A program made the position numbers and the translations under genes. Source: an uncultured Syntrophaceae bacterium (GTDB taxonomy: Bacteria; Desulfobacterota; Syntrophia; Syntrophales; UBA2192). From it: DNA of 46,710 bases. This document shows positions 20,363-43,582 of this stretch, one piece after another; the first letter of the stretch is position 1; the number at the start of each line of letters is the position of its first letter. The notes beneath the pieces are model-generated. The model saw only the letters and a program-made list of their open reading frames with translations, ran no database searches and was not told where the DNA came from. The DNA lies in NCBI GenBank assembly GCA_964429555.1, contig CAYSDD010000002.1:1-46710 (forward strand). The letters are read 5' to 3'.

Positions 20363-20596
20363 CTTCTCCTCGGGGGCAGACGGCTTGCGGATACGGGGTT
20401 GCCGGTCTCGAACGACGGGCCTGGACGCGTCGGGGATTCCCCGGTAGCGGATGCCGGGGTCACGGGGGGCGGCAGAGAGCCCGGGCCCGGATACATGTCA
20501 GGCCGCAATCCGACGTCCGTCTGATGGCGGCCCGACCATCGGCAGATCACCTCCGGAATCGCGCTTCCGGACCCGTTTCCGTTCACTCGTTTCGAC

Positions 20597-24013: not shown

Positions 24014-24014
24014 C

Positions 24015-25247: not shown

Positions 25248-25252
25248 GCCCC

Positions 25253-25921: not shown

Positions 25922-25933
25922 CGCGTTGACCTC

Positions 25934-28179: not shown

Positions 28180-28318
28180 GACGTCCTCCCTGGATCTTCG
28201 CTTCGCTGTTTGACGACACCGGGACTGTACTCGAAAGGAGCGGTCTCGCTCCGGGCGCCGCAGAGGAGGATGAAGAGCGGTGGGTCAGTCGGAACAACCC
28301 CGACCGGGCTGCCGTCGC

Positions 28319-28355
28319 AAAAAGGCCGTCATCCGATCCCTATCGGATGGCGACC
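28319..28355 (-). terminator. Intrinsic-terminator-like hairpin inside the otsA leader (or 3' end of the yedF transcript)
   Basis: Minus strand GGUCGC-CAUCCGAU-AGGG-AUCGGAUG-ACGGCC followed directly by UUUUU (28323-28319). About 13 bp with one mismatch. Confidence 0.6.
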
Positions 28356-28419
28356 CGACCCCGGCGATTCCGCCTGAATTGCCGTTGCGGACCCGTTATC
28401 GGTTTCTCGACCGGTTTTC

Positions 28420-28448
28420 AGTGTAAAGGATCGGGAGGGCTGTGTCAA
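28420..28448 (-). promoter_or_regulatory. Near-consensus sigma70 promoter upstream of otsA
   Basis: Minus strand TTGACA (28448-28443), 17-nt spacer, TACACT (28425-28420). About 230-nt leader. Confidence 0.65.
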
Positions 28449-28712
28449 CCCTTTCGGGGCTTCCCGGACAGGCCGCGCCCTGCGTCCGTCAGTCCGTCCC
28501 CCTCGGCGTGTCGAGCAGCAGGGCGCGCGGGTCCCGCTTATCTGCAAACGGGCGGGCAGTGCCCCGGCTGCATCTCCTGCGGCCCTGCACCGGTTTGGGC
28601 GGGACACCGGTCGAGGCCGGATGAATGGCCCGGCCGTTGCCTTCCCGCGGGGGTGGCCGCCGCGCTGCGCCTGCGATGCTCGGGCCTGCCGCCGGATCCG
28701 GGCCGAGTGCCC

Positions 28713-29300
28713 TCAGAGGTTGATCACCCGGCCCGACGTCATGAGGGCCGTGACGATCTCGTGCATGTTGGAGACCTTGCCGACCCGGAGCTTCTCCTTG
28801 ATGCCGAAGAAGGCCAGGCAGGTGCCGCAGGAGAGGATCTCGACTCCCTCCCTGTCCAGGAGCGCCAGGCTCTCGAGGACGTCGGAACCCTCGGTGGTGA
28901 GAAAGACCCCTCCGTTGATGAAGATCACCTTGTCCGGTCTCGGCTGGGAATCCCAGAGCGTGTTGAGAAAGGCCTTCATGAGGATCGCGCCCAATTCGTC
29001 GGAGCCCTTGCCGAAGACGTCGGTCGTGATGCAGACCACGGTCGGTCCCTCCGCGGCTCCGGCCTGCGCCGCGAGGCTGCAGCCCGCCTGCTTCGTGATG
29101 GTGAGGGCATAGGCGCCCTCCTTCTCCGCCACCGTGACCTCGCAGCCCCGGCTGGCCGCAAACCGCTTCACGTTCTCCCGGCTCTCGGGGCTGTCGACGA
29201 GGACCGTCACGGTCCCTTCGGGAATGGCCTCCAGGGCTTTCTTGGTGTTGATCACGGGCTGCGGGCAGGCAAGCCCCCGGCAATCGATTTCCCTCGTCAT
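28713..29300 (-). CDS. yedF: Sulfurtransferase-like selenium metabolism protein YedF (TusA-like N-domain plus DsrE-like C-domain)
   Basis: MTREIDCRGLACPQPV... preceded by AAAGGAGGA with a 9-nt spacer. C-terminal LSCGTCL...VSNM typical of YedF. Confidence 0.85.
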   Translation of the reverse strand: MTREIDCRGLACPQPVINTKKALEAIPEGTVTVLVDSPESRENVKRFAASRGCEVTVAEKEGAYALTITKQAGCSLAAQAGAAEGPTVVCITTDVFGKGSDELGAILMKAFLNTLWDSQPRPDKVIFINGGVFLTTEGSDVLESLALLDREGVEILSCGTCLAFFGIKEKLRVGKVSNMHEIVTALMTSGRVINL

Positions 29301-29436
29301 GGCGATGATCCTCCTTTCCCCGTCATGGACGGTCGCATTTTCCATAATCCCCTTTCATAAATCAAATGGATTCGTGGCATGTCAGCCTGCTGCGGCCCTC
29401 CCGCGGCAGGCGGGCCCACTTATAACGATTATCTAT

Positions 29437-29465
29437 TTGACAGATAGCCATTGTTTATGTATGGA
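29437..29465 (+). promoter_or_regulatory. Candidate promoter for the activase operon, overlapping an ATC-N9-GAT dyad
   Basis: TTGACA (29437-29442), 17-nt spacer, TATGGA (29460-29465). The dyad ATCTATTTGACAGAT (29431-29445) fits the LysR T-N11-A pattern. Confidence 0.45.
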
Positions 29466-29528
29466 ACCGGATCGAGTTCGGGCGGCGCGGGCCCGGGAAT
29501 GCTCCCGCCTCGGGAGGGTGAACAGGCG

Positions 29529-30275
29529 ATGAAGGGGATCGGGCTGGACATCGGTTCACGGACCATCAAGCTCGTCGTCTGCGAAAACGGCAGCATGACG
29601 ATGAAGCGCAAAGAGGTGAACACCTACGACCCCCTCACCCTGTGCCGGGAGATGCTGAATGGCTTTGAGGCAGAGCGTATCATCGCGACGGGCTACGGGC
29701 GCCATCTGCTCAAAGGATATCTCCAGTGCGAAACGATCAGTGAGATCAAGGCCTTCGCACTGGGAGCCCTTGCCCTCTGCGGCTCCTGCCGGACGGTCCT
29801 GGACATCGGCGGCCAGGACACGAAGGCCATCTCCCTGGACGAAAACGGGAGAATCCTCAAATTCCAGATGAACGACAAGTGCGCCGCCGGGACCGGGCGC
29901 TTCCTCGAGGTCATGGCCACGGCGCTCGGGCTTTCCCTGGAGGATTTCATGGCGGCGGCGGCCGCCGCCGAAGAACCCGAGTCGGTCAGCAGCATGTGCG
30001 CGGTCTTCGCCGAGTCGGAGGTGATCTCCATGATCGCCCGCGGTGCGCCGCGGCCGGGGATCGCACGGGGAATCCACCAATCCGTCGCCCGGCGGGCCGT
30101 GTCCCTGCTCGAGAAGGTATCGATTCGCGAGGACATCCTGTTTGCCGGCGGCGTCGCGCTGAACCCCTGCATGCGCGCGCAGATCGAGGAGCATCTCGGC
30201 CGGCGCGTCATGGTGCCCGGTGACCCGCAGATCGTGGGCGCTCTGGGGTGCGCGCTGATGGCCTCGGAGGCATGA
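29529..30275 (+). CDS. BadF/BadG/BcrA/BcrD-type ATPase: (R)-2-hydroxyacyl-CoA dehydratase-type activase
   Basis: MKGIGLDIGSRTIKLVV, LDIGGQDTKAI, NDKCAAGTGRFLE, MCAVFAESEVIS, FAGGVALNP. Confidence 0.9.
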   Translation: MKGIGLDIGSRTIKLVVCENGSMTMKRKEVNTYDPLTLCREMLNGFEAERIIATGYGRHLLKGYLQCETISEIKAFALGALALCGSCRTVLDIGGQDTKAISLDENGRILKFQMNDKCAAGTGRFLEVMATALGLSLEDFMAAAAAAEEPESVSSMCAVFAESEVISMIARGAPRPGIARGIHQSVARRAVSLLEKVSIREDILFAGGVALNPCMRAQIEEHLGRRVMVPGDPQIVGALGCALMASEA

Positions 30276-30281
30276 AGCAGC

Positions 30282-31490
30282 ATGGCTAATCAGCACTCGG
30301 CACACGAGAAACAGCGGATCCCGTCGGGCCCCGCGAGTTCGCAGGCGGAACCCCTCCTGTGTGACGGCTTCCACGCCGACCCCGCCGGACGCATCCTCAG
30401 CTGCATCCTGTCGAAGCGGGAACAGGGTTCACCCGTCATCGGCCTGTACTGCGGGTACGCCCCTCTGGAGCTGGTCCGGGCCATGGGCGCCGTGCCCGCC
30501 TTCCTCTGCGCCGCCTCGGGCCGGACGATCCCCGCCGCCGAGGCGGTCCTTCCCGCCAATCTCTGCCCGCTGATCAAGTCGAGTTTCGGGTTCATCCGGA
30601 CGAAATCGTGCCCCCTCTACGAGCTTGCCGACGCCGTCATCGGCGAGACGACCTGCGACGGGAAGAAAAAGATGTTCGAGCTGATCGCCCCGCTCAAGCC
30701 GACCCACGTCATGGATCTTCCCTACAGGCCCGATGAGGAAGGGACCCTCGCACGCTGGACGCAGATGGTCCGCAAGCTCAAGAGATTCCTCGAGGAAACC
30801 TTCGCTCGTGCGATCCCGGAGGAACGGATCGAGGCCGAGATCCGGGAAACGAACGCGAAATGCCGGCTCATCGACCGCGTCTTCGATTACGCCGCCCTGG
30901 CGCGGCCGGCCATCCACTGGAGCGAACTGCTCGATGTGATCGGGTTCGAGCCCCTCACCGGCTGCGAGGAATTCCGCCGGTTCGTGGAGCCCGCGCTGGA
31001 ACGGCTCGAGGCCCGCGCCGTTCGCGGCATCGGTTTCGGGCGGCCCGGCGCGCCGCGCGTTCTGGTCAGCGGCTGCCCGATCGGGGGGGAAGCGAAAAAG
31101 GTCCTGCGCCTCATCGAAGAGGCGGGGGGCGTCGTCGTCGCCATGGAGGGATGCAGCGGCATGAAGGGATATTCCATCCGAATCGACGAGGGGACCGGCG
31201 ACCCGCTCGGGGCCGTGGCCGCGGCAACCCTGAAGATCCCCTGCTCCTGCATGACGCCCAACCGGGGGCGGTTCGACGCCCTCGACGAGATGATCGCCCG
31301 GTACCGGCCGGATGCCGTCATCGACGTCATTCTTCAGGCCTGCCACACCTACAACATCGAGTCCCACCGGATCGGGCGGCACATCCGCGACCGGCACGGG
31401 CTGCCCTTTCTGAAAGTCGAGACGGACTATTCCGAATCCGACATCGAGCCGCTGCGCACCCGCATCGAGGCCCTGCTCGAGAGCTGCTGA
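30282..31490 (+). CDS. 2-hydroxyacyl-CoA dehydratase / BcrB-superfamily protein, single-subunit (double-cubane-cluster reductase-like)
   Basis: 402 aa. GLYCGYAPLELVRAMGAVP, CPLIKSSFG, ETTCDGKKKMFE, SGCPIGG, ACHTYN. Only one large subunit is paired with the activase. Confidence 0.8.
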   Translation: MANQHSAHEKQRIPSGPASSQAEPLLCDGFHADPAGRILSCILSKREQGSPVIGLYCGYAPLELVRAMGAVPAFLCAASGRTIPAAEAVLPANLCPLIKSSFGFIRTKSCPLYELADAVIGETTCDGKKKMFELIAPLKPTHVMDLPYRPDEEGTLARWTQMVRKLKRFLEETFARAIPEERIEAEIRETNAKCRLIDRVFDYAALARPAIHWSELLDVIGFEPLTGCEEFRRFVEPALERLEARAVRGIGFGRPGAPRVLVSGCPIGGEAKKVLRLIEEAGGVVVAMEGCSGMKGYSIRIDEGTGDPLGAVAAATLKIPCSCMTPNRGRFDALDEMIARYRPDAVIDVILQACHTYNIESHRIGRHIRDRHGLPFLKVETDYSESDIEPLRTRIEALLESC

Positions 31491-31511
31491 GCGCCCTGTG
31501 CTTCCGAAGGC

Positions 31512-31811
31512 TCAGTCGAGGGCCGTCACTTCGCCCGGAGGGAATCCCCCCTTCTCGAGCCTCTCCCGGATCGTTTCGATGCTCGTCCTTTTGTCGTCGA
31601 AGGTGACCGTCGCCTCTCGGGTGAAGGCGTTGACGTCATGCTTCACCACGCCCGGGGTCGTCCGGAGGATGAAGTTGACCTGCGGCACCGTGGAGGGGCA
31701 GTCGCAGGCCTCGATCTTGAGCCGGATGGTCTTTTCGGCCGCAGAGGCGTCCGGCGCCGCGGCGAGGGCCGTGAGTGCGAGCAGGACGGTGAGAACGTGC
31801 AGCGTCTTCAT
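31512..31811 (-). CDS. Secreted HMA (heavy-metal-associated)-like domain protein with CxC in place of CxxC
   Basis: 99 aa. Signal peptide MKTLHVLTVLLALTALAAAPDASA. IRLKIEACDCPSTVPQV...GVVKHDV...ATVTFD. ATGA overlap with the upstream gene. Confidence 0.65.
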   Translation of the reverse strand: MKTLHVLTVLLALTALAAAPDASAAEKTIRLKIEACDCPSTVPQVNFILRTTPGVVKHDVNAFTREATVTFDDKRTSIETIRERLEKGGFPPGEVTALD

Positions 31812-32173
31812 CGCGGACCTCCCGTTGATTCCGATTGCTCCGCAGAACAGTCGCGGATGAAACGAGCCAGTTCCTCTTCGTTCAACCCCGCCCCGCGCCT
31901 GCCGTCCAGGCGCCGGGCGACGGCACCCTTGCGAAAGAACAGCACGGTCGGAAAGATCTCGATCGCCCAGGGGTCCGACAGCGTGTCCCCGTCGTCCTGC
32001 ACGAGAGCGAACCGCCCCGGGTCCCGTGCGTGATTCTCGAACACGGGCAGGAACCTGCGGCTGTAGGGGCACCAGGAGGCGTAGAACAGGGCGAACAGCT
32101 CGTCTCGGGAGCGCAGGAGCGCCTCGAGATCCGGCGCGCTCGTAACCCGGGGGATTTGGGATGTTTCTTCCAT
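31808..32173 (-). CDS. Thioredoxin-fold protein with monothiol WCPYS motif
   Basis: SD AAAGGAG 8 nt before ATG 32173. LFALFYASWCPYSRRFLPVF...IFPTVLFF. Confidence 0.7.
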   Translation of the reverse strand: MEETSQIPRVTSAPDLEALLRSRDELFALFYASWCPYSRRFLPVFENHARDPGRFALVQDDGDTLSDPWAIEIFPTVLFFRKGAVARRLDGRRGAGLNEEELARFIRDCSAEQSESTGGPR

Positions 32174-32236
32174 CACGCGTTCTCCTTTCCTGGGCTGTCG
32201 AGCCCGTTCGTCCGGGGCCCGCGACGGGGGTCGGCA

Positions 32237-33457
32237 TCACCCCTGAGCGATTCCCAGCACGTCCCGGCAGAGGATCTGCAGGTCACGAAGCTCGGCCCGC
32301 TGCCGGGGCTCGAGTCGCTTGGGTACCCCGGCGGCCCCGAGGGACCGGTTGATTCGCCGGGCCGCGGCGAAGAGGTGCGCGAGGGCCTCCGGGATGTTGA
32401 AATCCCGATGCATCGCCTCGCGGAACCGCACCCCGAGTTCGGTCGTGGCCCCCGCAACCCGGGCTTCTCCTTCCCCGTCCGCCCCGCAGCGCCCGGCAAG
32501 GCCGGAGAGCCGATCGAGGGCCGCGGCCGCCTCCCCGAGCCGCCGCTCCGTCAAGTCCACGGGTCGACGGTAATGCGTCGAGAGGAGGAACAGCCGGATC
32601 GCCCCCGGCCGATGATGCCGGAGCAGGTCGCGGATCCGTCCGCCCCGGTCCTCGGATTTTGAAAGCTTCCTCCCCTTGAGCGTCACCAGTTCGTGATGGA
32701 GCCAGTACCGGGCGAGGTCCGTCCCGTCGAGGCTGCGCGAAAGGGCCCTCTCGTTTTCATGATGGGGAAAGATCAGGTCCCGGCCTCCGCCGTGGATATC
32801 GAACAGGCTGCCCAGGTGCCCGCGGCTCATGGCAACGCATTCGATGTGCCACCCCGGCCGGCCTCTCCCCCAGGGGCTCTCCCAGGCGACCGCATCCCCT
32901 TCGGCCCTCTTCCAGAGGGCGAAGTCCCGCCCGTCCTCCTTGGGGCCGCCCGGTCCCGACCGCAGCCCCGCATCGACGCCCGCGGCGTCCGCGAGGCGAC
33001 CGTAGTCGCCCCGCAGGCGGACCCGGAAGTAGACGCCGTCCTCGCGCACGTAGGCCTGCCCGTCGTCGATGAGCCTCGCGATCGCCTCGAGGATCGGCCC
33101 GATCCGTTCCGTCACGCGCGGCTCGAAATCGGGTGCGAGGACCCCGAGGGCGGCCATGTCCTCCCGGTACGAGCGGATGTAGCGGTCGGCGAGATCCCCG
33201 GCTGCGATCCGCTCGGTTCCCGCCCGTGCGAGGATCTTGTCGTCGAGATCCGTGAAGTTCCGCACGTACCGGACGGCATACCCCTCGAACCGCAGGAAGC
33301 GGACGACCACATCGAAAAAGACCGCCGACCGGGCGTGGCCGACGTGGGCGTGGTCATAGACCGTGGGCCCGCAGACGTAGATTCCGATATGCCCCGGCCG
33401 GATCGGGACAAACGGCTCGAGCGACCCCGTCAGGGTGTTCCAGAGACGCAGCGGCAC
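32237..33457 (-). CDS. cysS: Cysteine--tRNA ligase family protein lacking the C-terminal anticodon-binding module (406 aa)
   Basis: [17 protein letters not shown] (HIGH), [23 protein letters not shown] (Zn ligands), KLSKS. Ends about 50 aa after [12 protein letters not shown], where E. coli CysRS continues for roughly 60 more residues. GTG start 4 nt after the selB stop, with GAGGGAG as SD. Confidence 0.85.
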
Positions 33458-33461
33458 CGCC

Positions 33462-35390
33462 CTACTCCCTCAGCACGCGCTCGTTGCCGCGGCGCTCGGT
33501 GAACCCGATCGCGTCGAGATGCTCGAGAAGGGGCAGGCCGATCGTGCGGCCGCACCCGAGGACCGGGTTGCAGTCCGCGGGCGTGAAGCGACCCTGTTTT
33601 GCAATCCAGGCGCGGATGCGGTCCTTGGCCGTTTCCAGGCCCCGCCGCGAAATGTAGCGCTCGCCGCCCAGCATCACGACGTGTCTCTTCGAGACCAGGT
33701 GTCCGAGGAGGCGCCTGACCTTCGGCTTCTCGTCCGGGAGACCCAGGGCCGCGCTGATCACGGCGACCGTGACGGTGACGGTGCCCGCGCGCTCGACCGC
33801 CTCGAGCACGCGCGCGAGCAGGGGATCCCGAAGGGATCCCAATCTCCGGTGCATCTCCGAAAGAGCATACCCTCCGTTGACGGACGCCAGGACCCCCTCG
33901 CGGACCAGCTCCCCGAGCAGGAAATCCAGGGCCCCGGGCTCCAGGTTCCAGGGGATCGATGCGGCGATGTGCGACTTGCTGATCTGATCGCGCAGGGTGT
34001 CCTCGGCAAGCGTCCGTTCGACGGCCTCCGCGATCTTGCGCTTGGCCTCCTGCGCGGTTTCCGCCGAAAGGAAGGAGCCGGCGTCGAGGGGAACGAGGAA
34101 CCCCGCCTCGCTCTGCCTTTTCAGCACGTTCTCGAAGACGGCGCGATCCAGTCCCGTGGATCGGCTCAGCCCCTCCGCGGTCAGTACGGCGGCGGGCTGC
34201 GCGGCGGCGGCGGCCTTCACGATCCGCCCCGGATCGCCCGTTTGCAGCCCGGTCAAGTAGGCAAGGGTCCTCTCCGCACGCGCCCGCCGGAACTTGACCC
34301 TCGTTGTCTCGAGGATCGTGCCGCCGCCGAGCACGGAAGGGCTGTTCATGGGCGTCATGATGCATCGATCCCGGGGAGCCGCACCGAGCGGTGCCGTGAG
34401 CCGGAATTGCACCAATCCCCTCTGCCCGGGGACGAGTTCCTCCCGGCCCATGATCACCGCCAGAGCCGACCCGACTGCACTGCCGACGTGCACCTTGACC
34501 CTCTGGCCGCTGCGGAGGGGCTGCCCGGAAAGGCGGCACAGCTCCAGCTCGACATTCAGGTAGGCGGCCGCCTCGAGGCACCCCGGCTCCGAGAGGACCA
34601 TTCCCCGGGCGATTTCCCCCGCCCCGACCCCCTGCAGGTTGATCCCGACCCGAAGGCCGGCGGAGGCGGACTCCACGGCGTTGTGATGGGACTCCAGAGA
34701 CCGCACGCGGACCGTCTTCCCGCCCGGGACGATCTCGAGCCGGTCTCCCGCCCGCACGGTGCCCGACAGGATCGTCCCGCTCACCACGGTGCCCAGGCCC
34801 TGGAAGATTCGAACCTGGTCGACGAACATCCGGAAGGGTTTCGAGGAGGCCTTGCTCCGGATCCCCGCCGCGGCCATCCCGTCCAGGACCGCCAGGACTT
34901 CATCCCGGCCCCGCCCGTCGATGCCGGAAAACGGGATGACCGGCCCGTTTTCGAGGAACGACCCCGCCGCGAGTTCCTCGATGTCCAGGGCGGCCATTTC
35001 CAGGGTCTCCCGGTCGACCAGGTCGGCCTTTGTCAGCACGGCGAAGCCGGCCGTGACGCCGAAGAAGCGCAGGATCTCCAGGTGCTCCCGCGTCTGGGGC
35101 ATGACCCCGTCGTCGGCCGCCACCGCCAGGATCGCCGCATCGACGGCGCTCAGCCCCCGGATGGTGTTCTTCATGAAATCCCGGTGGCCGGGCACGTCGA
35201 CCAGGCTGACCCGCAGGCCCGACGGCAGCACGAGCGGGGCGATGCCGAACTCGATGGAGAGGCCCCGGGCCTTTTCGACCTGCATCCGGTCCGTGTCGAC
35301 GCCCGTCAGGGCGGCGACCAGCGTCGTCTTGCCGTGGTCGACATGCCCGGCGATGCCGACCGTGTAATGTCTCTGCATGATTGCGCCCAT
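33462..35390 (-). CDS. selB: Selenocysteine-specific elongation factor SelB family
   Basis: 642 aa. GHVDHGKTTL, DVPGHRDF, TKADL. C-terminal winged-helix region ...LLEHLDAIGFTERRGNERVL matches the E. coli SelB C-terminus. The domain II pocket motif reads FVDQVRIF instead of AIDRAF. Confidence 0.85.
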   Translation of the reverse strand: MGAIMQRHYTVGIAGHVDHGKTTLVAALTGVDTDRMQVEKARGLSIEFGIAPLVLPSGLRVSLVDVPGHRDFMKNTIRGLSAVDAAILAVAADDGVMPQTREHLEILRFFGVTAGFAVLTKADLVDRETLEMAALDIEELAAGSFLENGPVIPFSGIDGRGRDEVLAVLDGMAAAGIRSKASSKPFRMFVDQVRIFQGLGTVVSGTILSGTVRAGDRLEIVPGGKTVRVRSLESHHNAVESASAGLRVGINLQGVGAGEIARGMVLSEPGCLEAAAYLNVELELCRLSGQPLRSGQRVKVHVGSAVGSALAVIMGREELVPGQRGLVQFRLTAPLGAAPRDRCIMTPMNSPSVLGGGTILETTRVKFRRARAERTLAYLTGLQTGDPGRIVKAAAAAQPAAVLTAEGLSRSTGLDRAVFENVLKRQSEAGFLVPLDAGSFLSAETAQEAKRKIAEAVERTLAEDTLRDQISKSHIAASIPWNLEPGALDFLLGELVREGVLASVNGGYALSEMHRRLGSLRDPLLARVLEAVERAGTVTVTVAVISAALGLPDEKPKVRRLLGHLVSKRHVVMLGGERYISRRGLETAKDRIRAWIAKQGRFTPADCNPVLGCGRTIGLPLLEHLDAIGFTERRGNERVLRE

Positions 35391-35452
35391 CGACGGTCAG
35401 ATTCCTGCGGCTCTCTCCGGCACGCGGCGCCGGCCGGCCGCTTTGCATGCGA

Positions 35453-35544
35453 TGGAAGGGGCAAGGGGAATCGAACCTCCTCCTCGTTGCTGAGACGAGG
35501 CCAACGGATTTGAAGTCCGCGGGGTGCCCAGCACCATTGCCCCT
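35453..35544 (-). tRNA. selC: tRNASec-like (selC-type) tRNA, anticodon UCA, 8-bp acceptor, 4-bp bulged T stem, long variable arm, discriminator U73, encoded CCA
   Basis: Hand fold of the minus strand: AGGGGCAA UG GGUG-CUGGG-CACC CC GCGGA-CUUCAAA-UCCGU UGG CCUCGU-CUCAGCA-ACGAGG A GG(A)GG-UUCGAUU-CCCC UUGCCCCU U CCA. Anticodon at 35511-35513. Confidence 0.8.
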
Positions 35545-35848
35545 GTCCTGTGCCGTCTTCTCCCCGTCCGTGCCGCGCGTCGATCGGACGCCCCGGGGCG
35601 GCACAGGCGGGGAAGCCGCTGCGTTGCACATCGTTCTTTGCCGGATTCGTCGGGGGGAAGATCCCGTTCGCCTGCCCTTGCCGCAGGCAAACAGGACGAG
35701 GGTCTCATCTTGCAGGCGGGCAAAAGGCGGGCGGCATCAACGCGGGAACCGCACGAGTCCCCGATTGCGTCGATCAGCTCCGTAACAGTCGAATCGGCAT
35801 GTTCGTGACCATCCGGTCTTTCCGTGTCAAGGGTCTTGCGCTCATCCG

Positions 35849-35878
35849 CTATTAACGGGAAACCCTTCGGGCTGTCAA
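35849..35878 (-). promoter_or_regulatory. Candidate sigma70 promoter upstream of the tRNA(UCA)-selB operon
   Basis: Minus strand TTGACA (35878-35873), 18-nt spacer, TAATAG (35854-35849). About 300 nt upstream of the tRNA 5' end. Confidence 0.4.
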
Positions 35879-35999
35879 GTTAAAAATAACTTTTCTACAT
35901 CTCATCTATGCACAGATTGAATGTTGACGGCGGGGTCCCGGTCCGGGGGCCCGCCGCGAAGGGGCGGCGGTCGCACCCCGGCGTTTTCGCGCAGCCGGC

Positions 36000-37394
36000 T
36001 TATTCCGTCCCCCGCAGCGTGTCGAGCAGGAAGGCGCGCAGCCGGCCGTAATCGGCGGGAAGATCCACGGGCTCGCCGGTTCGCTTCTCGAGGTCCCTCA
36101 TGCTCTGCGGTACCTCGGGGGTGATCCCCAGCAGCTCGATGATCTCGTCGGGGAACTTGGCGGGGTGCGCCGTCTCGAGGCACACGCAGGGCTCTGCGAT
36201 GGGCCCGCAGCAGGCCTCCAGGTAGTGCTCGAGGCCCCGCCAGCCCACGGCCCCGTGGGGTTCCAGCAGCACCCGGTGCCGCTCCCAGACGCGCCGGATC
36301 GTTTCCTTCGTTTCCTCGTCGGAGACGCTCACGGAGAAGATGCGCCGGCGCATCTCCGCCAGGTCGGGGTAGGCGTGCACGATGCCCGTTCGGTCCACCG
36401 TGCCCCCGTAGAGCTCGAAGAACCGGGCCAGGTTGCTCGGGTGGCCCACGTTCATGGCGTTGGAGAGGCAGGCCCGCGACGGTGAGACCTTCCGGTAGAC
36501 CCCCGTCCTGAGGTAGCTGGGAAATTCGTCGTTTTCGTTGGTGGGCATGACGAGCATCCGGACGGGAAGCCCCATGCGCCGGGCGTACTCGCAGCCCAGG
36601 GCGTTGCCGAAATTCCCCGAGGGGACGGAGAAGACGATCTCCTCGCCCGGGGCGGCCAGCTGGGCGTAGGCATAGACGTAGTAGATGCTCTGCGGCAGGA
36701 TCCGGCCGAAGTTGATGGAGTTGGCCGAAGTGAGGTTGAGCCCCGCGAGCCCCGGGTCGGCGAAGGCCTGCTTGACGAGGTTCTGGCAGTCGTCGAACTT
36801 GCCGTCCACGGACAGGGCGAGGACGTTGCCGCCGATCGTGTCGAGCTGCTTCTTCTGCATGCCGCTCACTTCGTTTCGCGGGTAGAGGATATAGACGCCG
36901 ATCCCCTCGACGCCCTTGAAGGCCTCGCCCACGGCGCTGCCCGTGTCGCCCGAGGTGGCCACGAGCACATTGAGGCGCCTGCCCGGATCGCGCAGGCGGC
37001 TCATGAGCCTCGCCATCATCCGGGCGGCGAAGTCCTTGAAGGAGGCCGTCGGCCCCCGGTCCAGGCGCATGATGTAAACGCGGTCGTGGACCCGCTCCAG
37101 GGGAACATCGAAGTTGTATGCATCGTCCACGACCTGCCGGATCGCCTCCCGGGGCAGCTCGTCCTTCAGGAACGCCTCGGCCACGAGGAGGGCCGTCTCC
37201 GGGTAGGGCCGCCCCTTGCAGGCCAGCACCTCGCTCACGGCAAGCGTCGGGATCGGCTCGGGCATGAAGAGCCCCTCGTCGGGCGCCTGGCCCCGGATCA
37301 GGGCCTCGCGGAAGGAGACCTGCCCCGTGAACGGCGTGAGGCCGCCCACCCCCTCGAGGCGGCGGTTCGTGCTGTAGTAGAGGATTTTCGTCAT
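36000..37394 (-). CDS. thrC: Threonine synthase (E. coli/yeast-type long form)
   Basis: 464 aa. VSFREALIRGQAPDEGLFMP, PTASFKDFAARMM (PLP Lys), TSGDTGSA, TSANSINFGRILPQ. Confidence 0.85.
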   Translation of the reverse strand: MTKILYYSTNRRLEGVGGLTPFTGQVSFREALIRGQAPDEGLFMPEPIPTLAVSEVLACKGRPYPETALLVAEAFLKDELPREAIRQVVDDAYNFDVPLERVHDRVYIMRLDRGPTASFKDFAARMMARLMSRLRDPGRRLNVLVATSGDTGSAVGEAFKGVEGIGVYILYPRNEVSGMQKKQLDTIGGNVLALSVDGKFDDCQNLVKQAFADPGLAGLNLTSANSINFGRILPQSIYYVYAYAQLAAPGEEIVFSVPSGNFGNALGCEYARRMGLPVRMLVMPTNENDEFPSYLRTGVYRKVSPSRACLSNAMNVGHPSNLARFFELYGGTVDRTGIVHAYPDLAEMRRRIFSVSVSDEETKETIRRVWERHRVLLEPHGAVGWRGLEHYLEACCGPIAEPCVCLETAHPAKFPDEIIELLGITPEVPQSMRDLEKRTGEPVDLPADYGRLRAFLLDTLRGTE

Positions 37395-37398
37395 GCGT

Positions 37399-38334
37399 TT
37401 ACCTCTTTGCGAGCGGTTCCGGGCGGTAGGCCCGGATGAAATCGAGAAAGATCCGGTGGTGCGCCATCAGGTCGAAGTGCCTGCGGTGAATGACGTAAAA
37501 GAAGCGCTCGACGGGGCAGCCCTCGATGGGCAGCGCGGCAAGGATCCCCGAGGCGATCTCCCTCCGGACGGCGTAGATGGAAATCACGGAAAGGCCGACG
37601 CCGGCGATGACGGCCTCCTTGACCGCCTCGGAGCTCCCCATCTCGGCAACGACCCGAAACCGGGACAGGTCCGTTTTGCCGGCCTCGGCAAGGCACCGCT
37701 CGAAGGCGTCGCGGGTGCCCGAGCCCCGCTCGCGGATCACGAAGGGCTCCTTCTCGAGCTCGCGGACACGGACGGTTTTCCTCTTCGCCCAGGGGTGCGC
37801 CGCGGGAACGGCCAGCACCATCCGGTCCCGCCAGAGCGGTTCGGCCGCCAGCTTCGCGCCGGCGGGCTCCTTGCCGATGAAGCCGATCTCGGCGCCGTTC
37901 TCCAGGACCGTCTCGATGACCTCGCTGCTGTCGGCCGCCCGCACGGCGGTCCGGATCGCGGGGAATTTCTCCCGAAACGCAGCGATCGCCGGGGGCAGGA
38001 TGTAGGTGGCCGGGATCGTGCTGGCGGCGATCCGGATGTCCCCCTCCTCGGCGGCGCGCGCCCGCATCACCCGCTCCATGGCCTCCTCGCGCAGCTTCAG
38101 GATCCGCCGGGCGTAGTCGTACACCACGCGCCCCTCGGGCGTCAGCGTGAAGGCGCGGCTCGCGCGGTTGACCACCTTCGCCCCCAGGGCGTCCTCGAGG
38201 TTGCGGATGTGCTTCGTGAGCGACGGCTGGGAGAGGTACATCCTCCTGGCCGCCCGGCTGAAGCTGCGTTCCTCGACGAGGTGCACCAGGGCCTCGAGCT
38301 GCAGCATGTTGACGTTTTTCATCTCGGCCTGCAT
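37399..38334 (-). CDS. LysR-family transcriptional regulator (selenium-cluster associated)
   Basis: 311 aa. HTH LQLEALVHLVEERSFSRAARRMYLSQPSLTKHIRNLE. Divergent from yedE. Its stop is 4 nt before the thrC ATG. Confidence 0.85.
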   Translation of the reverse strand: MQAEMKNVNMLQLEALVHLVEERSFSRAARRMYLSQPSLTKHIRNLEDALGAKVVNRASRAFTLTPEGRVVYDYARRILKLREEAMERVMRARAAEEGDIRIAASTIPATYILPPAIAAFREKFPAIRTAVRAADSSEVIETVLENGAEIGFIGKEPAGAKLAAEPLWRDRMVLAVPAAHPWAKRKTVRVRELEKEPFVIRERGSGTRDAFERCLAEAGKTDLSRFRVVAEMGSSEAVKEAVIAGVGLSVISIYAVRREIASGILAALPIEGCPVERFFYVIHRRHFDLMAHHRIFLDFIRAYRPEPLAKR

Positions 38335-38467
38335 GGCCTGTCCCTACCATGACCCTTTTCGATAATCAAGAAGCATTTATGAATTATTGGAATTGGCGTT
38401 ATTCAGAAAAGAAGGGTAATAAAAAAGCGCTTTCCTCATCCCAGACCCTGTGAAGGAGGACCCCGGT

Positions 38468-39541
38468 ATGGGCAACCCGTTTGCATCCCGCGCGGGAATC
38501 ATCGTCGTCGGCGTTGCCATCGGCATCATGGCAACGCTCCTGCAGTACTTTGGCAACCCCCCGAACATGGGCATCTGCGTGGCCTGCATGGAGCGCGACA
38601 TTGCGGGCGCCCTGGGCCTGCACCGGGCCGCCGTCGTGCAGTATCTTCGCCCCGAGATCATCGGCTTCGTGATCGGGGCCTTCCTCGCCGCCCTGCTCGC
38701 GAAGGAGTACCGGCCCCGCGGGGGGTCGGCGCCGCTCGTGCGCTTCTTTCTCGGCGTCTTCGCCATGATCGGCGCACTGGTGTTCCTGGGCTGCCCCTGG
38801 CGGGCGCTGCTGCGGCTTGCGGGGGGCGACTGGAACGCCCTCACGGGCCTCGCGGGCCTGGCGACGGGCATCGGCGTGGGCGTCGCCTTCCTCAAATCGG
38901 GCTACAGCCTGGGCCGCGCCCAGCCGCAGAAGGCGGCGTCGGGTATCCTCTTCCCCGTCTTCATGGCCGGGCTCTTCCTGCTGCTCGTCTTCCGGGTGAC
39001 CTTCGCCGAGGGCGGCCCCCTCTTTTTCAGCCAGAAGGGTCCGGGGTCGCAGTTCGCCCCCGTCTGGATGAGCCTGGGCGCCGGGGTGCTCGTCGGGGCC
39101 ATCGCCCAGCGCAGCCGGTTCTGCACCATGGGGGCCCTGCGGGACGTCATCCTGCTGAAGGATTTCCACCTCATGAGCGGCGTGGCGGGTCTGCTCGTCG
39201 CCGCCTTTGCCATGAATCTCATCCTGGGGCAGTTCAAGCCCGGTTTTGCAGGCCAGCCGATCGCCCACACGGACCATCTCTGGAATTTCCTGGGGATGGC
39301 GCTCGCGGGCCTGGCCTTCGCGCTGGCCGGCGGCTGCCCGGGCCGCCAGCTGTTCCTCTCCGGCGAGGGGGACCTCGACGCGGGCATCTTCGCCCTGGGC
39401 ATGATCGTCGGGGCCGGCGTGTCGCACAACTTCGCCATGGCCAGCTCGCCCGCCGGCGCCGCCGCCTTCGGGCCGGCCGGCGTCATCGTGGGCTTCGTCT
39501 TCTGCCTGGCCGTGGGGTTCACGATGCGGGAGAAGGCCTGA
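38468..39541 (+). CDS. yedE: YedE-family putative selenium/sulfur-compound transporter
   Basis: GAAGGAGG 8 nt before ATG 38468. GNPPNMGICVACMERDIAGALGLH, FCTMGALRD, about 9 TM segments. Confidence 0.85.
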   Translation: MGNPFASRAGIIVVGVAIGIMATLLQYFGNPPNMGICVACMERDIAGALGLHRAAVVQYLRPEIIGFVIGAFLAALLAKEYRPRGGSAPLVRFFLGVFAMIGALVFLGCPWRALLRLAGGDWNALTGLAGLATGIGVGVAFLKSGYSLGRAQPQKAASGILFPVFMAGLFLLLVFRVTFAEGGPLFFSQKGPGSQFAPVWMSLGAGVLVGAIAQRSRFCTMGALRDVILLKDFHLMSGVAGLLVAAFAMNLILGQFKPGFAGQPIAHTDHLWNFLGMALAGLAFALAGGCPGRQLFLSGEGDLDAGIFALGMIVGAGVSHNFAMASSPAGAAAFGPAGVIVGFVFCLAVGFTMREKA

Positions 39542-39590
39542 TGCAAGGACCCGGAGCCAAGAACGACCATTTCGCTGAAAGGAGACCGTC

Positions 39591-39803
39591 ATGAGCGCAA
39601 CGCGAATCGATGCCCGGGGCCTTTCCTGCCCCCAGCCCGTCGTCCTGACCAGCAGGGCCATCGAGGGCGGGGCGGAGAGCCTGGAAGTCCTCGTCGACAA
39701 CGAGGTGTCGAAGGAAAACGTGCTTCGCCTGGCGAAGCGGCACAAGATGCAGGCCTCGGTCCGTCCGGAAGGGCCCGATATTGTCATCGAAATCAAAAAG
39801 TAG
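39591..39803 (+). CDS. TusA/SirA-family sulfurtransferase-like protein
   Basis: 70 aa. IDARGLSCPQPVV motif. SD AAAGGAG. Confidence 0.85.
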   Translation: MSATRIDARGLSCPQPVVLTSRAIEGGAESLEVLVDNEVSKENVLRLAKRHKMQASVRPEGPDIVIEIKK

Positions 39804-39864
39804 TATAAGGAAACACCAACCGGGGCCTTCCCTGCGGGAAAGGCTCCGATTTGTTTAGGAAGGA

Positions 39865-40410
39865 ATGCGGAGATTCATGTTTTTCAAATCCGGCAAAAAG
39901 AACGGTTTCGAGGGCGGCGGGCTCGTCCTGTTCGAAAGCGTGGAAGAGGCCATGAGCGGCGAGCGGGCCCTGAAGGCGGGAGAATTCGAGACCCGTCTCG
40001 TGGCGCCCCCGCCCGAGCTCAGGCGGGGCTGCGATCTCGCCCTGGAGATCAACCTCGTGGAAAAGCCCGCCGTCGAGCGGGCGCTGCAGGAGCGCGAGGT
40101 CCCCTTCCTCGACATCCTGCCCATCCGGGGCGACGCGGAGCTTCTCCAGGTCGTCAAGGTCACCGACTTCGGCGAGGCCCTCATGGTCAAGGCGGGCAAC
40201 ATGAAGCTCACCTTCGACAAGGCCTCGGGCGTCGTCCTGAACATCTCGGGCGGCGGCTGCCCCGACATCCCCTACCTGCACGCCGAGATGCTGGCCAAGC
40301 CGCTGGAGCAGGCGCCGCGGCCCAAGGCCATCGGCCGCACGCTCTGCGCCCTCATGCTGGACCGCGCCTGGGAGCAGTCGCTCGAAATCCGGAAGAACGG
40401 CAACGGGTGA
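39865..40410 (+). CDS. DUF3343 (putative Se/S carrier)-like domain fused to an uncharacterised Cys-containing C-terminal domain
   Basis: N-terminal LVLFESVEEAMSGERALKAGEFETRLVAPPPELRRGCDLAL. C-terminal half has ISGGGCPDIPY and TLCALMLD. Alternative start ATG 39877. Confidence 0.65.
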   Translation: MRRFMFFKSGKKNGFEGGGLVLFESVEEAMSGERALKAGEFETRLVAPPPELRRGCDLALEINLVEKPAVERALQEREVPFLDILPIRGDAELLQVVKVTDFGEALMVKAGNMKLTFDKASGVVLNISGGGCPDIPYLHAEMLAKPLEQAPRPKAIGRTLCALMLDRAWEQSLEIRKNGNG

Positions 40411-40414
40411 GGCC

Positions 40415-41320
40415 ATGCTGCTCGTCTGCGGAACCGCCCCGCTCAAAGAGCTCCCGCTGACCGAGGGGGAGGCGGGGCTCGACGGGGACATCCTGCGCGT
40501 CGGCGGTGCCGGGATCCCCTGCACGCAGGGCACGGCGGCCCTGGTGAGCGCCGCCTGCAAGACGCTGGACTACCTGGGCCAGCCCGCGCCCCGGGTGCTG
40601 CTCGTGGGCGACGACGGCACCGGCAAGGGCAGCCGGCAGCTCTACGAGCGCCTGATCGAGGATCTGCCCCGCCTGGCCCCCCGGGTCGTCGTGCTGCACT
40701 ACATGCTGCCCGTCATGGGGCTCATGCGCAGGGTGAGCGAGTCGGCCTCCAAGGCGCCTCGGCGCCCCTTCATGATCGCCGATGCCGCGGCCATGTACGC
40801 CGCCAAGGCGGCGGGGATCGCCCGCGAGTTCGACCTCTTCACGCCGGACCTCTCGGAGCTGGCCTTCCTGGCGGACCCGCAGGCCACCCACCCGGCCTAC
40901 GTGAGCCGGCACCTCTTCGAGTCGGACAGCACGCGCATCCCCGAGATGGTCGCGGCGGCCTACGCCAACGGGAGCGCCGCCCGGACGCTCGTCGTGAAGG
41001 GCGCCACGGACCACATCGCGCAGGAGGGCAGGATCCTCGACACCCTGTCGGAGCCGGACATCCCGGCCCTCGAGGCCATCGGCGGTACGGGGGACACGAT
41101 CAGCGGCATGGTGGGGGCCCTCGTGCACGCCGGGTACGACGAGGTCACGGCGGCCCGCGTCGCCGTTCGGGCCAACCGCACGGCCGGGCTCTACGCCGGG
41201 GCCACGCCGGCCACGCGGATCCGGCAGGTCATCGAGGCCCTGCCCCGGGTCTTCGCCGATCACCTCGACGGGTGGGTGCGGCAGGCGCAAATCGAAAGAG
41301 CGGAAAGGAGCGCACCGTGA
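40415..41320 (+). CDS. Ribokinase-fold protein, YjeF C-terminal / NAD(P)HX-dehydratase (NnrD)-like
   Basis: 301 aa. LFTPDLSELAFL, LVVKGATDHIA, EAIGGTGDTISGMVGAL resemble NnrD motifs. Its stop overlaps the selD GTG (GTGA). Confidence 0.6.
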   Translation: MLLVCGTAPLKELPLTEGEAGLDGDILRVGGAGIPCTQGTAALVSAACKTLDYLGQPAPRVLLVGDDGTGKGSRQLYERLIEDLPRLAPRVVVLHYMLPVMGLMRRVSESASKAPRRPFMIADAAAMYAAKAAGIAREFDLFTPDLSELAFLADPQATHPAYVSRHLFESDSTRIPEMVAAAYANGSAARTLVVKGATDHIAQEGRILDTLSEPDIPALEAIGGTGDTISGMVGALVHAGYDEVTAARVAVRANRTAGLYAGATPATRIRQVIEALPRVFADHLDGWVRQAQIERAERSAP

Positions 41321-42369
41321 CGACGGAAAAGAAGATCCGCCTGACGGAGATGGTCCACGGGGCCGGCTGAGCGTGCAAGATCGGTCCGGAGGACCTGAGC
41401 CGAGCCCTGGAGGGGCTTCCCATCATCGCGGACCCCAACCTGATCGTCGGCCTCGAGGGCAACGAGGACGCGGGCGTCTACCGTCTGCGCGACGACCTGG
41501 CCATCATCCAGACGGTCGACTTCTTCACGCCCATCGTCGACGACCCCTACACCTTCGGGCAGATCGCCGCGACGAATTCCCTCTCCGACGTCTACGCCAT
41601 GGGCGGCCGGCCGATCACGGCCCTGAACATCATCTGCTTTCCGCCGAAGAAGCTCGACATGTCGGTCCTGCAGGCGATCCTGCGCGGCGGGCTGGACAAG
41701 ATGACGGAGGCGGGCGTCGTGCTCGTCGGGGGCCACAGCGTGGAGGACGACGAGCCGAAATACGGCCTCTCCGTGACGGGCGTCATTCACCCCGACCGGG
41801 TCCTGCGCAACCGCGGGGGCCGGCCCGGAGACAAACTGATCCTGACCAAGGCGCTCGGCACGGGCATCGTCAGCACGGCGATCAAGGGGGAGGAGGCCGA
41901 CCCGGCCCTCGTCGAGAAGGCCGTCCGGGCCATGACGACCCTGAACCGGCAGGCCGCCGAGCTGATGACGCAGATGCCCGTCATCCACGCCTGCACGGAC
42001 GTGACGGGGTTCGGCATGCTGGGGCACGCCTGCGAGATGATCGAGGGAAGCGACGTGGGGTTGACGATCGACGCCGCGGCCGTCCCCTGCTTCGAGGGGG
42101 TGCGGGAACTCGTGGAAAGCGGCTACGTGCCGGGGGGGCTCTACCGCAACAAGAACTTCCGGATGCCGATGATCGACGTCGAGCCGTCGTGCCCGGAGTG
42201 GCTGCTGGAGATCCTCTTCGACCCCCAGACCGCGGGCGGCCTGCTCATCGCCCTGCCGGCGGGGGACGCGGAAACGCTTGTCCGGCGCATGCGCGAGGCC
42301 GGGATCGGGGATGCGGCCGTGGTGGGCGAAGTGGTCGCCGCGCCGAAGGGGAAGATCATCGTCCGGTGA
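41317..42369 (+). CDS. selD: Selenide, water dikinase (selenophosphate synthetase) with in-frame UGA = selenocysteine at 41368-41370
   Basis: GTG 41317 after GGAAAGGAG. Translation VTTEKKIRLTEMVHGAG-U-ACKIGPEDL... aligns with E. coli ...[21 protein letters not shown] (UGA at the Cys17 position). Same frame as track ORF 41599..42369. 350 codons. Confidence 0.9.
41381..41398 (+). promoter_or_regulatory. Candidate SECIS hairpin 10 nt downstream of the selD UGA
   Basis: UC-GGUCC-GGA-GGACC-(U)-GA: 7 bp with a bulged U and a small apical loop. Hand fold only. Confidence 0.35.
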
Positions 42370-42381
42370 TGCCCTGAACGG

Positions 42382-42864
42382 TCAATCCCCCTGCCTGAGC
42401 TTCTGGGCCTCCTGCAGCAGCTCGTACTGGCGCTGGCGGTTCTCCCTCGTCGCGGGCATGGGCTCGCGGGCCTGCGCCTCCAGCCGCTCCGCTTCCCGGA
42501 GCCGTCTCTGTCTCTCCTGTTCCCGTTGCGCGTCGCGTGTCTCGACGGTTTTGACCACCTCGTCGAGCTGCCGGTCCCTCTGCCGGATGGCCTCCTCGGC
42601 CGTCACGGCACCGGGAGGGGGCTGCGGCCCCGCCTGTTCCGCGGCGGCTGCCGCAGGCGCGGCGGCCGGTTTCCCCGAGACGACGGGCTCGGCCCTCACC
42701 CCTTTCGGGGGCCTGTCCGTGAGCACGACGGTCCCGTCCCTGTCGGTGTACTTGTAGATGGTCTGCGCATCGGCCGGCGCTTGCACGAGGCTGCTCAACA
42801 GGGAGATGCAAAGCAGCCCCTGGAGCAGCCGACAAACTCTCAACGCGGACCTCTCACCCGTCAC
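42382..42864 (-). CDS. DUF4124-domain secreted protein with charged coiled-coil tail
   Basis: QTIYKYTDRDGTVVLTDRPP motif after a signal peptide. The start could be TTG 42843 (MRVCRLLQGLLC...). Confidence 0.7.
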   Translation of the reverse strand: MTGERSALRVCRLLQGLLCISLLSSLVQAPADAQTIYKYTDRDGTVVLTDRPPKGVRAEPVVSGKPAAAPAAAAAEQAGPQPPPGAVTAEEAIRQRDRQLDEVVKTVETRDAQREQERQRRLREAERLEAQAREPMPATRENRQRQYELLQEAQKLRQGD

Positions 42865-42930
42865 CTGTGCCCTCTCTTGCCCTTTCTCCCTCCTGCCTCG
42901 TGCCTTTCGCCTTTCGCCTTTTGCCTTCCC
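42865..42930 (-). repeat. Purine-rich (transcribed strand) heptad-periodic tract between the two DUF4124 genes
   Basis: Minus strand GAAGGCA AAAGGCG AAAGGCG AAAGGCA CGAGGCA GGAGGGA GAAAGGG ... Confidence 0.7.
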
Positions 42931-43473: not shown

Positions 43474-43582
43474 GGTTTTCTCTCCCTGTGGGTCAAGAGT
43501 AAGGCCTCAATGGGGATTATCGAACGAATCCGTTATTTTCTTTAATGGTTTCGCTTCAATGTACCCCCAAGACGCAAAAGAA

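Follow-up and report, generated by a model that had tools for sequence, protein, structure and literature searches.

The closest described counterparts of the locus reported here come from work on cysteine decoding and on selenium metabolism. As given in the main text of Mukai et al. (2017, Nucleic Acids Res 45:2776, PMC5389517; review PMC7609411), selC* genes encode tRNA-Cys species that mimic the selenocysteine tRNA (tRNA-Sec) while carrying cysteine identity elements, and a second SelB gene (selB*) lies downstream; the selC*/selB*/cysS* module was proposed to place cysteine at UGA codons. Comparative genomics has linked YedE, YedF, LysR_Se, DUF3343, activase and 2-hydroxyglutaryl-CoA-dehydratase (HGD)-type genes to the selenophosphate synthetase SelD (Lin et al. 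2015, Genome Biol Evol 7:664, PMC5322559). The double-cubane [8Fe-9S] cluster reductase (DCCP, family NF040772) occurs in less than 5% of genomes, and 955 of 970 strong NF040772 proteins come from SelD-encoding assemblies (Haft 2022, bioRxiv 10.1101/2022.07.06.499078). We analysed a stretch of 46,710 nt from an uncultured Syntrophaceae bacterium (contig CAYSDD010000002.1, assembly GCA_964429555.1; hereafter the window), in which the block at 28713-42369 joins a selenium-utilisation neighbourhood to a divergent selC*/selB*/cysS* module of the Syntrophales type, cysS* encoding a paralogue of cysteinyl-tRNA synthetase (CysRS). Given the associations reported by Lin et al. (PMC5322559) and Haft (2022), the selenium character of this cluster is of an already known kind. 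What appears to be new, from the sequence comparisons below, is the adjacency of the selC* module to genes for DCCP and its activase. In the accessible literature, which in the case of Mukai et al. is the main text without supplements, neither an embedding of the selC* module in selenium clusters nor a strong adjacency to DCCP is described.

The gene map between 28.7 and 42.4 kb, drawn from codon-position G+C (the 46.7-kb window has 66.8% G+C) and six-frame translation, was unambiguous, and families were assigned with NCBIfam and Pfam profiles. Selenocysteine is abbreviated Sec and its insertion sequence SECIS.

28713-29345, minus strand: yedF, sulfurtransferase-like protein of selenium metabolism with a TusA domain and a DsrE-like domain (TIGR03527 235 bits, cut-off 110; Pfam TusA and DsrE)
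29451-30275, plus strand: ATP-dependent activase of the BcrAD/BadFG family for the double-cubane reductase (TIGR00241 220 bits; from the public gene call, 29529 would be an alternative start)
30282-31490, plus strand: DCCP, double-cubane [8Fe-9S] cluster reductase (NF040772 426 bits, cut-off 350)
31512-31811, minus strand: secreted HMA/MerP-like metal-binding protein with a CDC motif and a signal-peptide-like N-terminus (MerP TIGR02052 E 1e-13, below its cut-off)
31808-32173, minus strand: thioredoxin (Trx)-fold protein with a monothiol WCPYS motif (Pfam Thioredoxin 33.7 bits)
32237-33457, minus strand: cysS*, CysRS paralogue without anticodon-binding domain (TIGR00435, profile positions 1-377 of 466)
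33462-35390, minus strand: selB*, elongation factor of the SelB family ending in a SECIS-binding winged helix (TIGR00475 289 bits, cut-off 242)
35453-35544, minus strand: selC*, tRNA-Sec-shaped tRNA-Cys(UCA) (ARAGORN; Rfam RF01852 53.7 bits, gathering score 47)
35545-35999, minus strand: non-coding region of 455 nt upstream of selC* (read from the sequence)
36000-37394, minus strand: thrC, threonine synthase of the E. coli type (TIGR00260 239 bits)
37399-38334, minus strand: lysR_Se, LysR regulator of the selenium-metabolism-associated family (NF040786 290 bits, cut-off 250)
38450-39541, plus strand: yedE, putative selenium transporter (TIGR04112 498 bits, cut-off 200; the public call starts at 38468)
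39591-39803, plus strand: TusA-like small carrier with a CPQP cysteine motif (Pfam TusA 57.7 bits)
39865-40410, plus strand: DUF3343 (Se_S_carrier) domain fused to DUF8182 (PF11823 56.4 bits; PF26554 on public gene calls)
40415-41320, plus strand: Carb_kinase / NAD(P)HX-dehydratase-like protein of the ribokinase superfamily (PF01256 35.8 bits)
41317-42369, plus strand: selD, selenophosphate synthetase, interrupted in frame by TGA at 41368-41370, codon 18 (TIGR00476 397 bits when this TGA is taken as cysteine)
41383-41395, plus strand: SECIS-like hairpin GGUCC-GGA-GGACC, 13 nt past the selD UGA (weak evidence)

Ten of these 15 genes match selenium-associated or Sec-decoding families. All 14 items that a sequence-only reading had assigned to this block were found at or near the places where it had put them, with families confirmed by NCBIfam/Pfam, and the close junctions that it had stressed are real and tight within each transcription unit: an ATGA overlap joins the Trx-like and HMA-like genes, a GTGA overlap the kinase-like gene and selD, and gaps of 4 nt separate selB from cysS, lysR from thrC and the DUF3343 gene from the kinase gene. 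The activase gene precedes the DCCP gene by 6 nt and selC* precedes selB* by 62 nt. It was also right about selA, as no Pfam or NCBIfam match to SelA exists anywhere in the window. The block as a whole comprises five transcription units over both strands and is not a single operon; the HMA-like gene is the last gene of the selC* unit.

The cloverleaf that ARAGORN predicts for the tRNA has an 8-bp acceptor stem with A1:U72, a U73 discriminator and an encoded CCA end, a T stem of 4 bp from which an A bulges, a long variable arm and a UCA anticodon. The discriminator of bacterial tRNA-Sec is G73, which is used by seryl-tRNA synthetase (SerRS), and canonical tRNA-Sec shows an 8/5 arrangement of acceptor and T stems; the window tRNA has U73 and 8/4 instead. 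Its RF01852 match of 53.7 bits thus reflects the shared tRNA-Sec shape only. On the other hand, it agrees point by point with the published selC* in U73, A1:U72, the 8/4 arrangement, the bulged A of the T stem (51a) and UCA. The molecule therefore looks like a selC*-type tRNA with cysteine identity marks on a tRNA-Sec-like scaffold, rather than an ordinary tRNA-Sec. The sequence-only reading had taken the tRNA, the SelB-like and the CysRS-like gene for ordinary Sec decoding with a missing selA; U73, A1:U72, the 8/4 stems and a CysRS devoid of the anticodon domain mark them as selC*, selB* and cysS*.

For the wider tRNA family we collected nine loci anchored on CysRS* and 45 metagenome contigs recovered by an exact search with the 3′ 31-mer, which gave approximately 50 loci (loci and proteins are referred to by our L and P numbers). 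Mean column identity of selC* over these loci is 94-97%, whereas the linked proteins are only ~35-80% identical. Among 19 aligned distinct sequences the discriminator (position 89) is T in all 19, a position that lies inside the 31-nt search pattern used for most of them; 17 have A1:U72 and two G1:U72. When these sequences are folded into the 8/4 cloverleaf 98.9% of cells are paired, as compared with 43-61% when the partners are slid, and the D, anticodon and variable arms show compensatory changes. Since the T arm and the 3′ acceptor strand are fixed by the search pattern, independent support for pairing comes only from those three arms. One family member carries the cysteine anticodon GCA (L105, a 1471-nt contig), and GCA members have already been reported for the selC* family. 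At five loci (L096, L097, L113, L118, L131; tRNA of L097 at 2526-2617) a selC*-type tRNA(UCA) stands without any SelB* or CysRS*. These solitary tRNAs are situated between an Hdr/Mvh-like and an Fe-S, NuoG- or Fdh-like gene, as assigned from N-terminal sequences alone. Genes of the Hdr/Mvh and NuoG/Fdh types often encode selenoproteins in deltaproteobacteria.

At 455 nt, the non-coding region that separates thrC from selC* is unusually long. In it a TTGACA hexamer (35878-35873) follows an AT-rich stretch, and it also holds several GC-rich dyads and a leader of ~300 nt before the tRNA. From its sequence we infer that the hexamer is a putative promoter element. The region is conserved with L016, but not with L015, and a permissive Rfam scan of 28300-43600 returned nothing beyond the tRNA, which leaves the selC* leader without a family.

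CysRS* of the window has 406 amino acids and ends before the canonical C-terminal domain (alignment A2); PF23493, which is present in canonical CysRS, is missing from it and from its short relatives. Its catalytic core is intact, as HVGH and KLSKS are kept and C29, C207, H232 and E236 fall in invariant columns. These four residues we take to be the zinc ligands, by analogy with the E. coli enzyme. In the CP1 segment the window protein has a shortened 'VD---AGLR', where canonical enzymes read 'EDMEAGAR' and the Desulfococcus-type P0041 'NMPAVSR'. The main text of Mukai et al. gives a PTVS motif for CP1 of D. biacutus CysRS* and ties it to the recognition of A1:U72 (PMC5389517). As judged from the alignment, CP1 of the window CysRS* has diverged at this site too, but to a sequence other than the published motif.

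An identity matrix and a neighbour-joining tree place the CysRS proteins without anticodon domain in two groups that are not sisters, P0001-P0017, which includes that of the window, and the Desulfococcus type P0041/P0046/P0069. The latter shares 51-53% identity with canonical CysRS, as compared with 45-49% with the window's group. Both groups work with nearly the same tRNA; the domain may have been lost twice independently, or rates may have been very unequal. In 15 of 23 contexts cysS* follows selB*, itself behind selC*, which is the layout of the published operon, with 4 to 35 nt between selB and cysS. The literature places cysS* only in Desulfobacterales (PMC7609411), so that its occurrence in Syntrophales, in a separate clade with a different CP1 segment, appears to be new on the sequences compared here. 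The window CysRS* is, to judge by its architecture, a probable functional counterpart of the published CysRS*, albeit a distinct variant.

SelB* aligns over its full length to E. coli SelB (5lzb, through residue 607), including the C-terminal SECIS-binding helix, and SelB-wing_3 (PF09107) covers residues 595-640. In the Sec pocket, the position of E. coli R181 is occupied by Gln in most members, whereas D180 and R236 are kept; in the SelB* of the window D180-R181 reads D-Q. SelB* is ~31-32% identical to E. coli-type and Desulfovibrionales SelB, as compared with 34-81% within the selC*-linked set. Translated alignments (tblastn) of SelB* also show in-frame stops at non-conserved positions in L132 (query residues 546 and 608) and L139 (residue 371), where pseudogenes or assembly errors are possible.

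The module thus resembles the system of Mukai et al. (PMC5389517), as set out in their main text, in its 8/4 tRNA with U73, the SelB paralogue immediately downstream and the CysRS without anticodon domain thereafter, and the same tRNA sequence family is present in a Desulfococcus sp. contig (L014). It differs in its host, which belongs to the Syntrophales (the closest metagenome-assembled genome is Syntrophaceae bacterium PtaB.Bin038), in that selB* and cysS* are 4 nt apart and do not overlap, in the Trx-like and secreted HMA-like genes of the same unit, and in its position inside a selenium uptake and activation cluster, which that main text does not describe. With the Sec system of E. coli (selA/B/C/D) it shares a UGA in selD with a downstream hairpin, a SelB-family factor with a SECIS-binding C-terminus, a long variable arm and a 12-bp acceptor/T branch. 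In contrast to E. coli there is no selA, the tRNA has U73 in place of G73 and 8/4 in place of 8/5, a dedicated CysRS paralogue stands in for SerRS and SelA, and the expected product is cysteine, not Sec.

In other lineages, the most frequent neighbour of selC* is the DCCP gene. A DCCP or activase gene lies beside the selC* module in 13 of approximately 23 independent contexts, and in 12 of the 13 lineages with one nearby it is found within ~1-4 kb of selC*. All seven neighbouring DCCPs that were tested are full members of NF040772 (423-486 bits). The DCCP of the window has seven cysteines (57, 76, 95, 125, 291, 323 and 354), the spacings of which are 1-2 residues off the published pattern; the biochemistry of double-cubane cluster proteins was reportedly described by Jeoung and Dobbek in 2018. 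One or two DCCP genes, often together with the activase gene, lie beside the selC* module in L007, L010, L012, L014, L111, L122 and L132, and an activase or DCCP gene lies beside the tRNA in L099, L125 and L112. The window matches the description of Haft (2022) in its NF040772 member, the seven conserved cysteines, the partner activase and the SelD-encoding organism. In that study, however, the link was a phylogenetic profile and an adjacency to the SAO locus, whereas the reductase of the window adjoins yedF and a UGA-recoding module of tRNA, elongation factor and aminoacyl-tRNA synthetase.

The remaining selenium genes recur near the module as well. Six contigs obtained from other samples match the window almost exactly. 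In L016, L127 and L129, with proteins 75-93% identical, the order selD-kinase-DUF3343-tusA-yedE, followed divergently by lysR-thrC-selC*-selB*-cysS*...trx, is kept. At ~50% identity, L008 and L104 carry on one strand yedE-tusA-DUF3343/DUF8182-kinase-DCCP-activase-yedF-selC*-selB*-cysS*-selD. yedE is found just downstream of the tRNA in L107, and yedF near the selC* module in L007 and L008; altogether, the module is accompanied by yedE, yedF or selD in the window, L016/L127, L007, L008, L107 and L132. A Trx-like gene follows downstream of cysS* in L015 and L016 only, and the HMA-like gene is kept in L015.

The only TGA-interrupted gene in the window is selD, and its in-frame TGA is found at the same site in L008, L016/L127, L141 and L143. 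It overlaps the kinase gene by GTGA and has the Shine-Dalgarno sequence GGAAAGGAG. When DCCP, YedF, YedE and other selC* neighbours were searched for in-frame TGA, a consistent stop at a conserved position emerged only in selD, and a scan of the whole window for split genes yielded none beyond selD, only same-frame neighbours. In L008, a Sec-type selD directly follows cysS*. A hairpin with a G-rich loop lies 13-16 nt past the selD UGA in three lineages (the window, L008 and L143). Since selD is the sole UGA gene of the window and stands directly after cysS* in L008, we think that its codon 18 is the main local client, and selD is therefore a likely client of the selC* module.

The uptake and activation arm corresponds in large part to what Lin et al. 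(PMC5322559) described, in that it groups YedE, SirA/TusA-like, DUF3343, YedF and LysR_Se with SelD, that genes of the activase and 2-hydroxyglutaryl-CoA-dehydratase types rank among the top neighbours (Slackia table) and that LysR_Se stands beside decoding genes. Unlike in Slackia, where the decoding neighbours are canonical selA and selB, those of the window are selC*/selB*/cysS*, and the DUF3343-DUF8182 fusion and its conserved kinase-like partner are not discussed there. This fusion is also found in L008, L141, L142 and L143. The kinase-like protein has more than 1000 homologues of ~300 amino acids, the closest of which are labelled Syntrophales or Syntrophus; its gene is always beside the DUF3343-DUF8182 gene and is fused to TusA in P0203/L142. 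That a LysR regulator belongs to the block, as the sequence-only reading had it, is borne out by a LysR_Se (NF040786, 290 bits) divergent from the yedE-selD operon, and the divergent arrangement with yedE recurs in L016, L141 and L142.

An AT-rich 9-mer, TTCATAAAT or its complement, is common to the lysR/yedE (38375-38383) and yedF/activase (29354-29362) spacers, and TTATGAAT-like boxes as well as GGAAT-N7-ATTCC dyads occur in the lysR/yedE spacers of L016, L141 and L142. From their sequence these boxes may be a putative LysR_Se operator. thrC is co-oriented with lysR_Se, 4 nt away on its downstream side, and the adjacency of the two is also seen in L016 and L141, the ThrC of L141 being 70% identical to that of the window. 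We rejected the idea that thrC is a disguised Sec or cysteine synthase; as its product matches E. coli ThrC (1vb3) over the full length with E 1.5e-78 and passes the equivalog cut-off, it is treated as a threonine synthase. Upstream of DCCP-selC*-selB*-cysS* in L012 (528-7480) there are genes for an ATP-binding cassette (ABC) transporter with a PBP_like_2 binding protein, an Aminotran_5 enzyme and a TOBE protein. The Aminotran_5 enzyme (cysteine desulfurase / selenocysteine lyase family) and the transporter fit a scavenging theme.

Taken as a whole, the block is best read, with a probability of about 0.6, as a modular 'selenium acquisition and scarcity' neighbourhood in which the selC* module would insert cysteine at UGA as a backup for SelD. 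The first module would comprise yedF, activase and DCCP, the second selC*, selB* and cysS* with the Trx-like and HMA-like genes, and the third lysR_Se (with thrC) and yedE through selD. Selenium species imported by YedE would be passed to cysteines of the TusA-like protein, YedF and DUF3343, and the kinase-like protein may contribute an ATP-dependent step of unspecified nature. DCCP and its activase could then reduce the carrier-bound selenium to selenide in an ATP-driven, low-potential reaction, from which SelD would make selenophosphate, while LysR_Se would sense the selenium status and might co-regulate the modules. CysRS* is predicted to charge selC* with cysteine independently of the anticodon, since the loss of the anticodon-binding domain would allow it to accept UCA, and SelB* would carry the Cys-tRNA to UGA-SECIS sites. 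As this route needs no SelA, the absence of selA from the window would be explained. SelD with cysteine at codon 18 could thus be made without selenium, which would break the circular dependence of Sec-containing SelD on its own product, and the same rescue could extend to selenoproteins encoded elsewhere in the genome. Such a restart is consistent with the published suggestion that the selC* system is a backup for selenium scarcity.

Several points weigh against this proposal. According to the main text of Mukai et al., native CysRS* was inactive in E. coli (from unshown data), and the evidence for cysteine charging stems from an engineered mimic of the Desulfococcus enzyme (PMC5389517); the CysRS* of the window falls into a different clade and has D---AGLR in CP1, not PTVS. 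A backup also presumes that canonical selA, selB and selC coexist with the module, and the scope of our analysis is the window only. In stability, the hairpin past the selD UGA does not stand out from shuffled sequence (z -0.1 to -0.8), and it is therefore weak positional evidence only. Nothing comparable to the candidate LysR_Se box was found upstream of selC*, which leaves common regulation by LysR_Se unproven. The other points concern the cohesion of the block. In L015, with proteins 62-85% identical, selC*-selB*-cysS*-...-trx-HMA-DCCP is kept, but a substrate-binding protein gene and a GMP-synthase-like gene replace the thrC-lysR-yedE arm. L141 (3876-10374) and L143 (663-4590) carry lysR_Se divergent from yedE-DUF3343/DUF8182-kinase-tusA-selD(TGA) without a selC* module in the stretch fetched, and the same holds for L142 (4940-9101), where the cassette lacks selD and the kinase is fused to TusA. 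Finally, in L017, L117, L120 and L128 the selC* module has none of the other families within the available sequence.

The missing yedE arm of L015 and the cassettes of L141-L143 without selC* indicate a modular juxtaposition; the block consists of three separable modules that repeatedly re-associate and is not an indivisible unit. The sequence-only reading had proposed a coordinated trait rather than chance adjacency, and independent shuffling of the sub-clusters in close relatives as the observation that would refute it. What stands is a genuine, recurrent selenium neighbourhood, with 10 of 15 genes in relevant families and re-association at ~50% identity; what does not stand is the single 'super-cluster'. 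The synteny itself is mixed, as the order is kept in L016/L127, whereas L015 is without the yedE arm and the cassette stands alone in L141 and L143.

The same losses, together with the selC*-selB* loci whose available flanks hold none of the other families (L017, L117, L120, L128) and the tRNAs among Hdr/Fdh-type genes (L096/L097), would also be compatible with three real modules that have come together through shared ancestry or a local hotspot, with no functional coupling between them. This we consider unlikely. The associations recur in other orders and on other strands at ~40-60% identity (L007, L008, L014, L111, L122, L132), and for such different arrangements in distant lineages one inherited ancestral order is insufficient. 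Furthermore, DCCP is rare, yet of the 13 lineages with a DCCP or activase gene near selC*, 12 have it within ~1-4 kb.

Within the proposed scarcity neighbourhood, a narrower version would see in the selC* module a bootstrap devoted to Sec-containing SelD, and in the double-cubane enzyme the missing selenium reductase. This is a tentative idea that we would sooner doubt than adopt, although it is more probable than a direct charging of Sec. In that scenario CysRS* would load free selenocysteine onto selC* and SelB* would deliver it, independently of SelA and fed by YedE, YedF and DCCP. In several lineages the module does lie among selenium genes and not among sulfur or cysteine genes, cysteine activity of native CysRS* was never demonstrated, its intact Zn-thiolate site would bind a selenolate too, and SelB* keeps D180 and R236 of the Sec pocket. 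Canonical CysRS, moreover, discriminates poorly against Sec. Were this true, the 21st amino acid would be charged directly, by a route independent of SelA. However, the GCA member would then place Sec at cysteine codons, most SelB* have Gln for the pocket Arg181, all selC* genomes that Mukai et al. examined have a complete SelA route (PMC5389517), and no enzyme that makes free Sec is evident, as thrC resembles a normal threonine synthase. We therefore hold direct charging to be highly improbable.

Just as hard to sustain is ordinary Sec decoding, with a tRNA-Sec serylated by SerRS, SelA encoded elsewhere, a normal SelB and an accessory or unrelated CysRS-like gene, since the tRNA-Sec calls of both ARAGORN and Rfam, the passed SelB equivalog cut-off and the Sec codon of selD are outweighed by U73 in place of G73, A1:U72, a T stem of 4 and not 5 bp, a GCA member in the same tRNA family, the CysRS without anticodon domain 4 to 35 nt after selB in 15 of 23 contexts, and a literature that assigns exactly this combination to cysteine (PMC5389517, PMC7609411).

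The remaining window genes with family matches are housekeeping or compatible-solute genes. mnmA (43583-44734, minus strand) does lie 1.2 kb past selD, as the sequence-only reading had it, with two DUF4124 genes in between; as a part of the trait it found no support: it is on the opposite strand, behind two unrelated genes, no selU is present, and the contigs of the relatives end short of this position. The two DUF4124 proteins (42382-43473, minus strand) are tandem paralogues with signal-peptide-like N-termini and charged, coiled-coil-like C-termini, and the pair is also found in the identical contigs L001 and L002. Directly to the left of yedF (23162-28179, minus strand) there are genes for trehalose-phosphate synthase and phosphatase, DUF5752, a TreT-like glycosyltransferase and an HAD phosphatase, and according to public calls an MGS-type glycosyltransferase comes next after this compatible-solute set. 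An nhaA-I RNA (riboswitch class; Rfam 44.1 bits, gathering score 37) is located at 20522-20574 on the minus strand, ~160 nt upstream of a P-type cation ATPase gene (17597-20362, minus strand). No Sec genes were found in the ~0.4-1.4 kb past the left edge of the window.

For annotation, the locus is a warning that a 'SelB' call, or a 'tRNA-SeC' call by ARAGORN and Rfam, can mask a cysteine-decoding system. The second, deeply diverged clade of CysRS without anticodon-binding domain, which goes with an almost identical tRNA, is relevant to the evolution and engineering of orthogonal pairs of aminoacyl-tRNA synthetase and tRNA. The locus also joins two questions, namely the purpose of selC*/selB*/cysS* and the role of the double-cubane reductases, which are near-perfect trackers of SelD-encoding genomes. 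It offers a testable link between cysteine at UGA, SelD with its Sec codon and the double-cubane enzyme, which together would form a toolkit for selenium starvation: the insertion of cysteine at UGA would restart SelD synthesis and the reductase would feed selenide to SelD.

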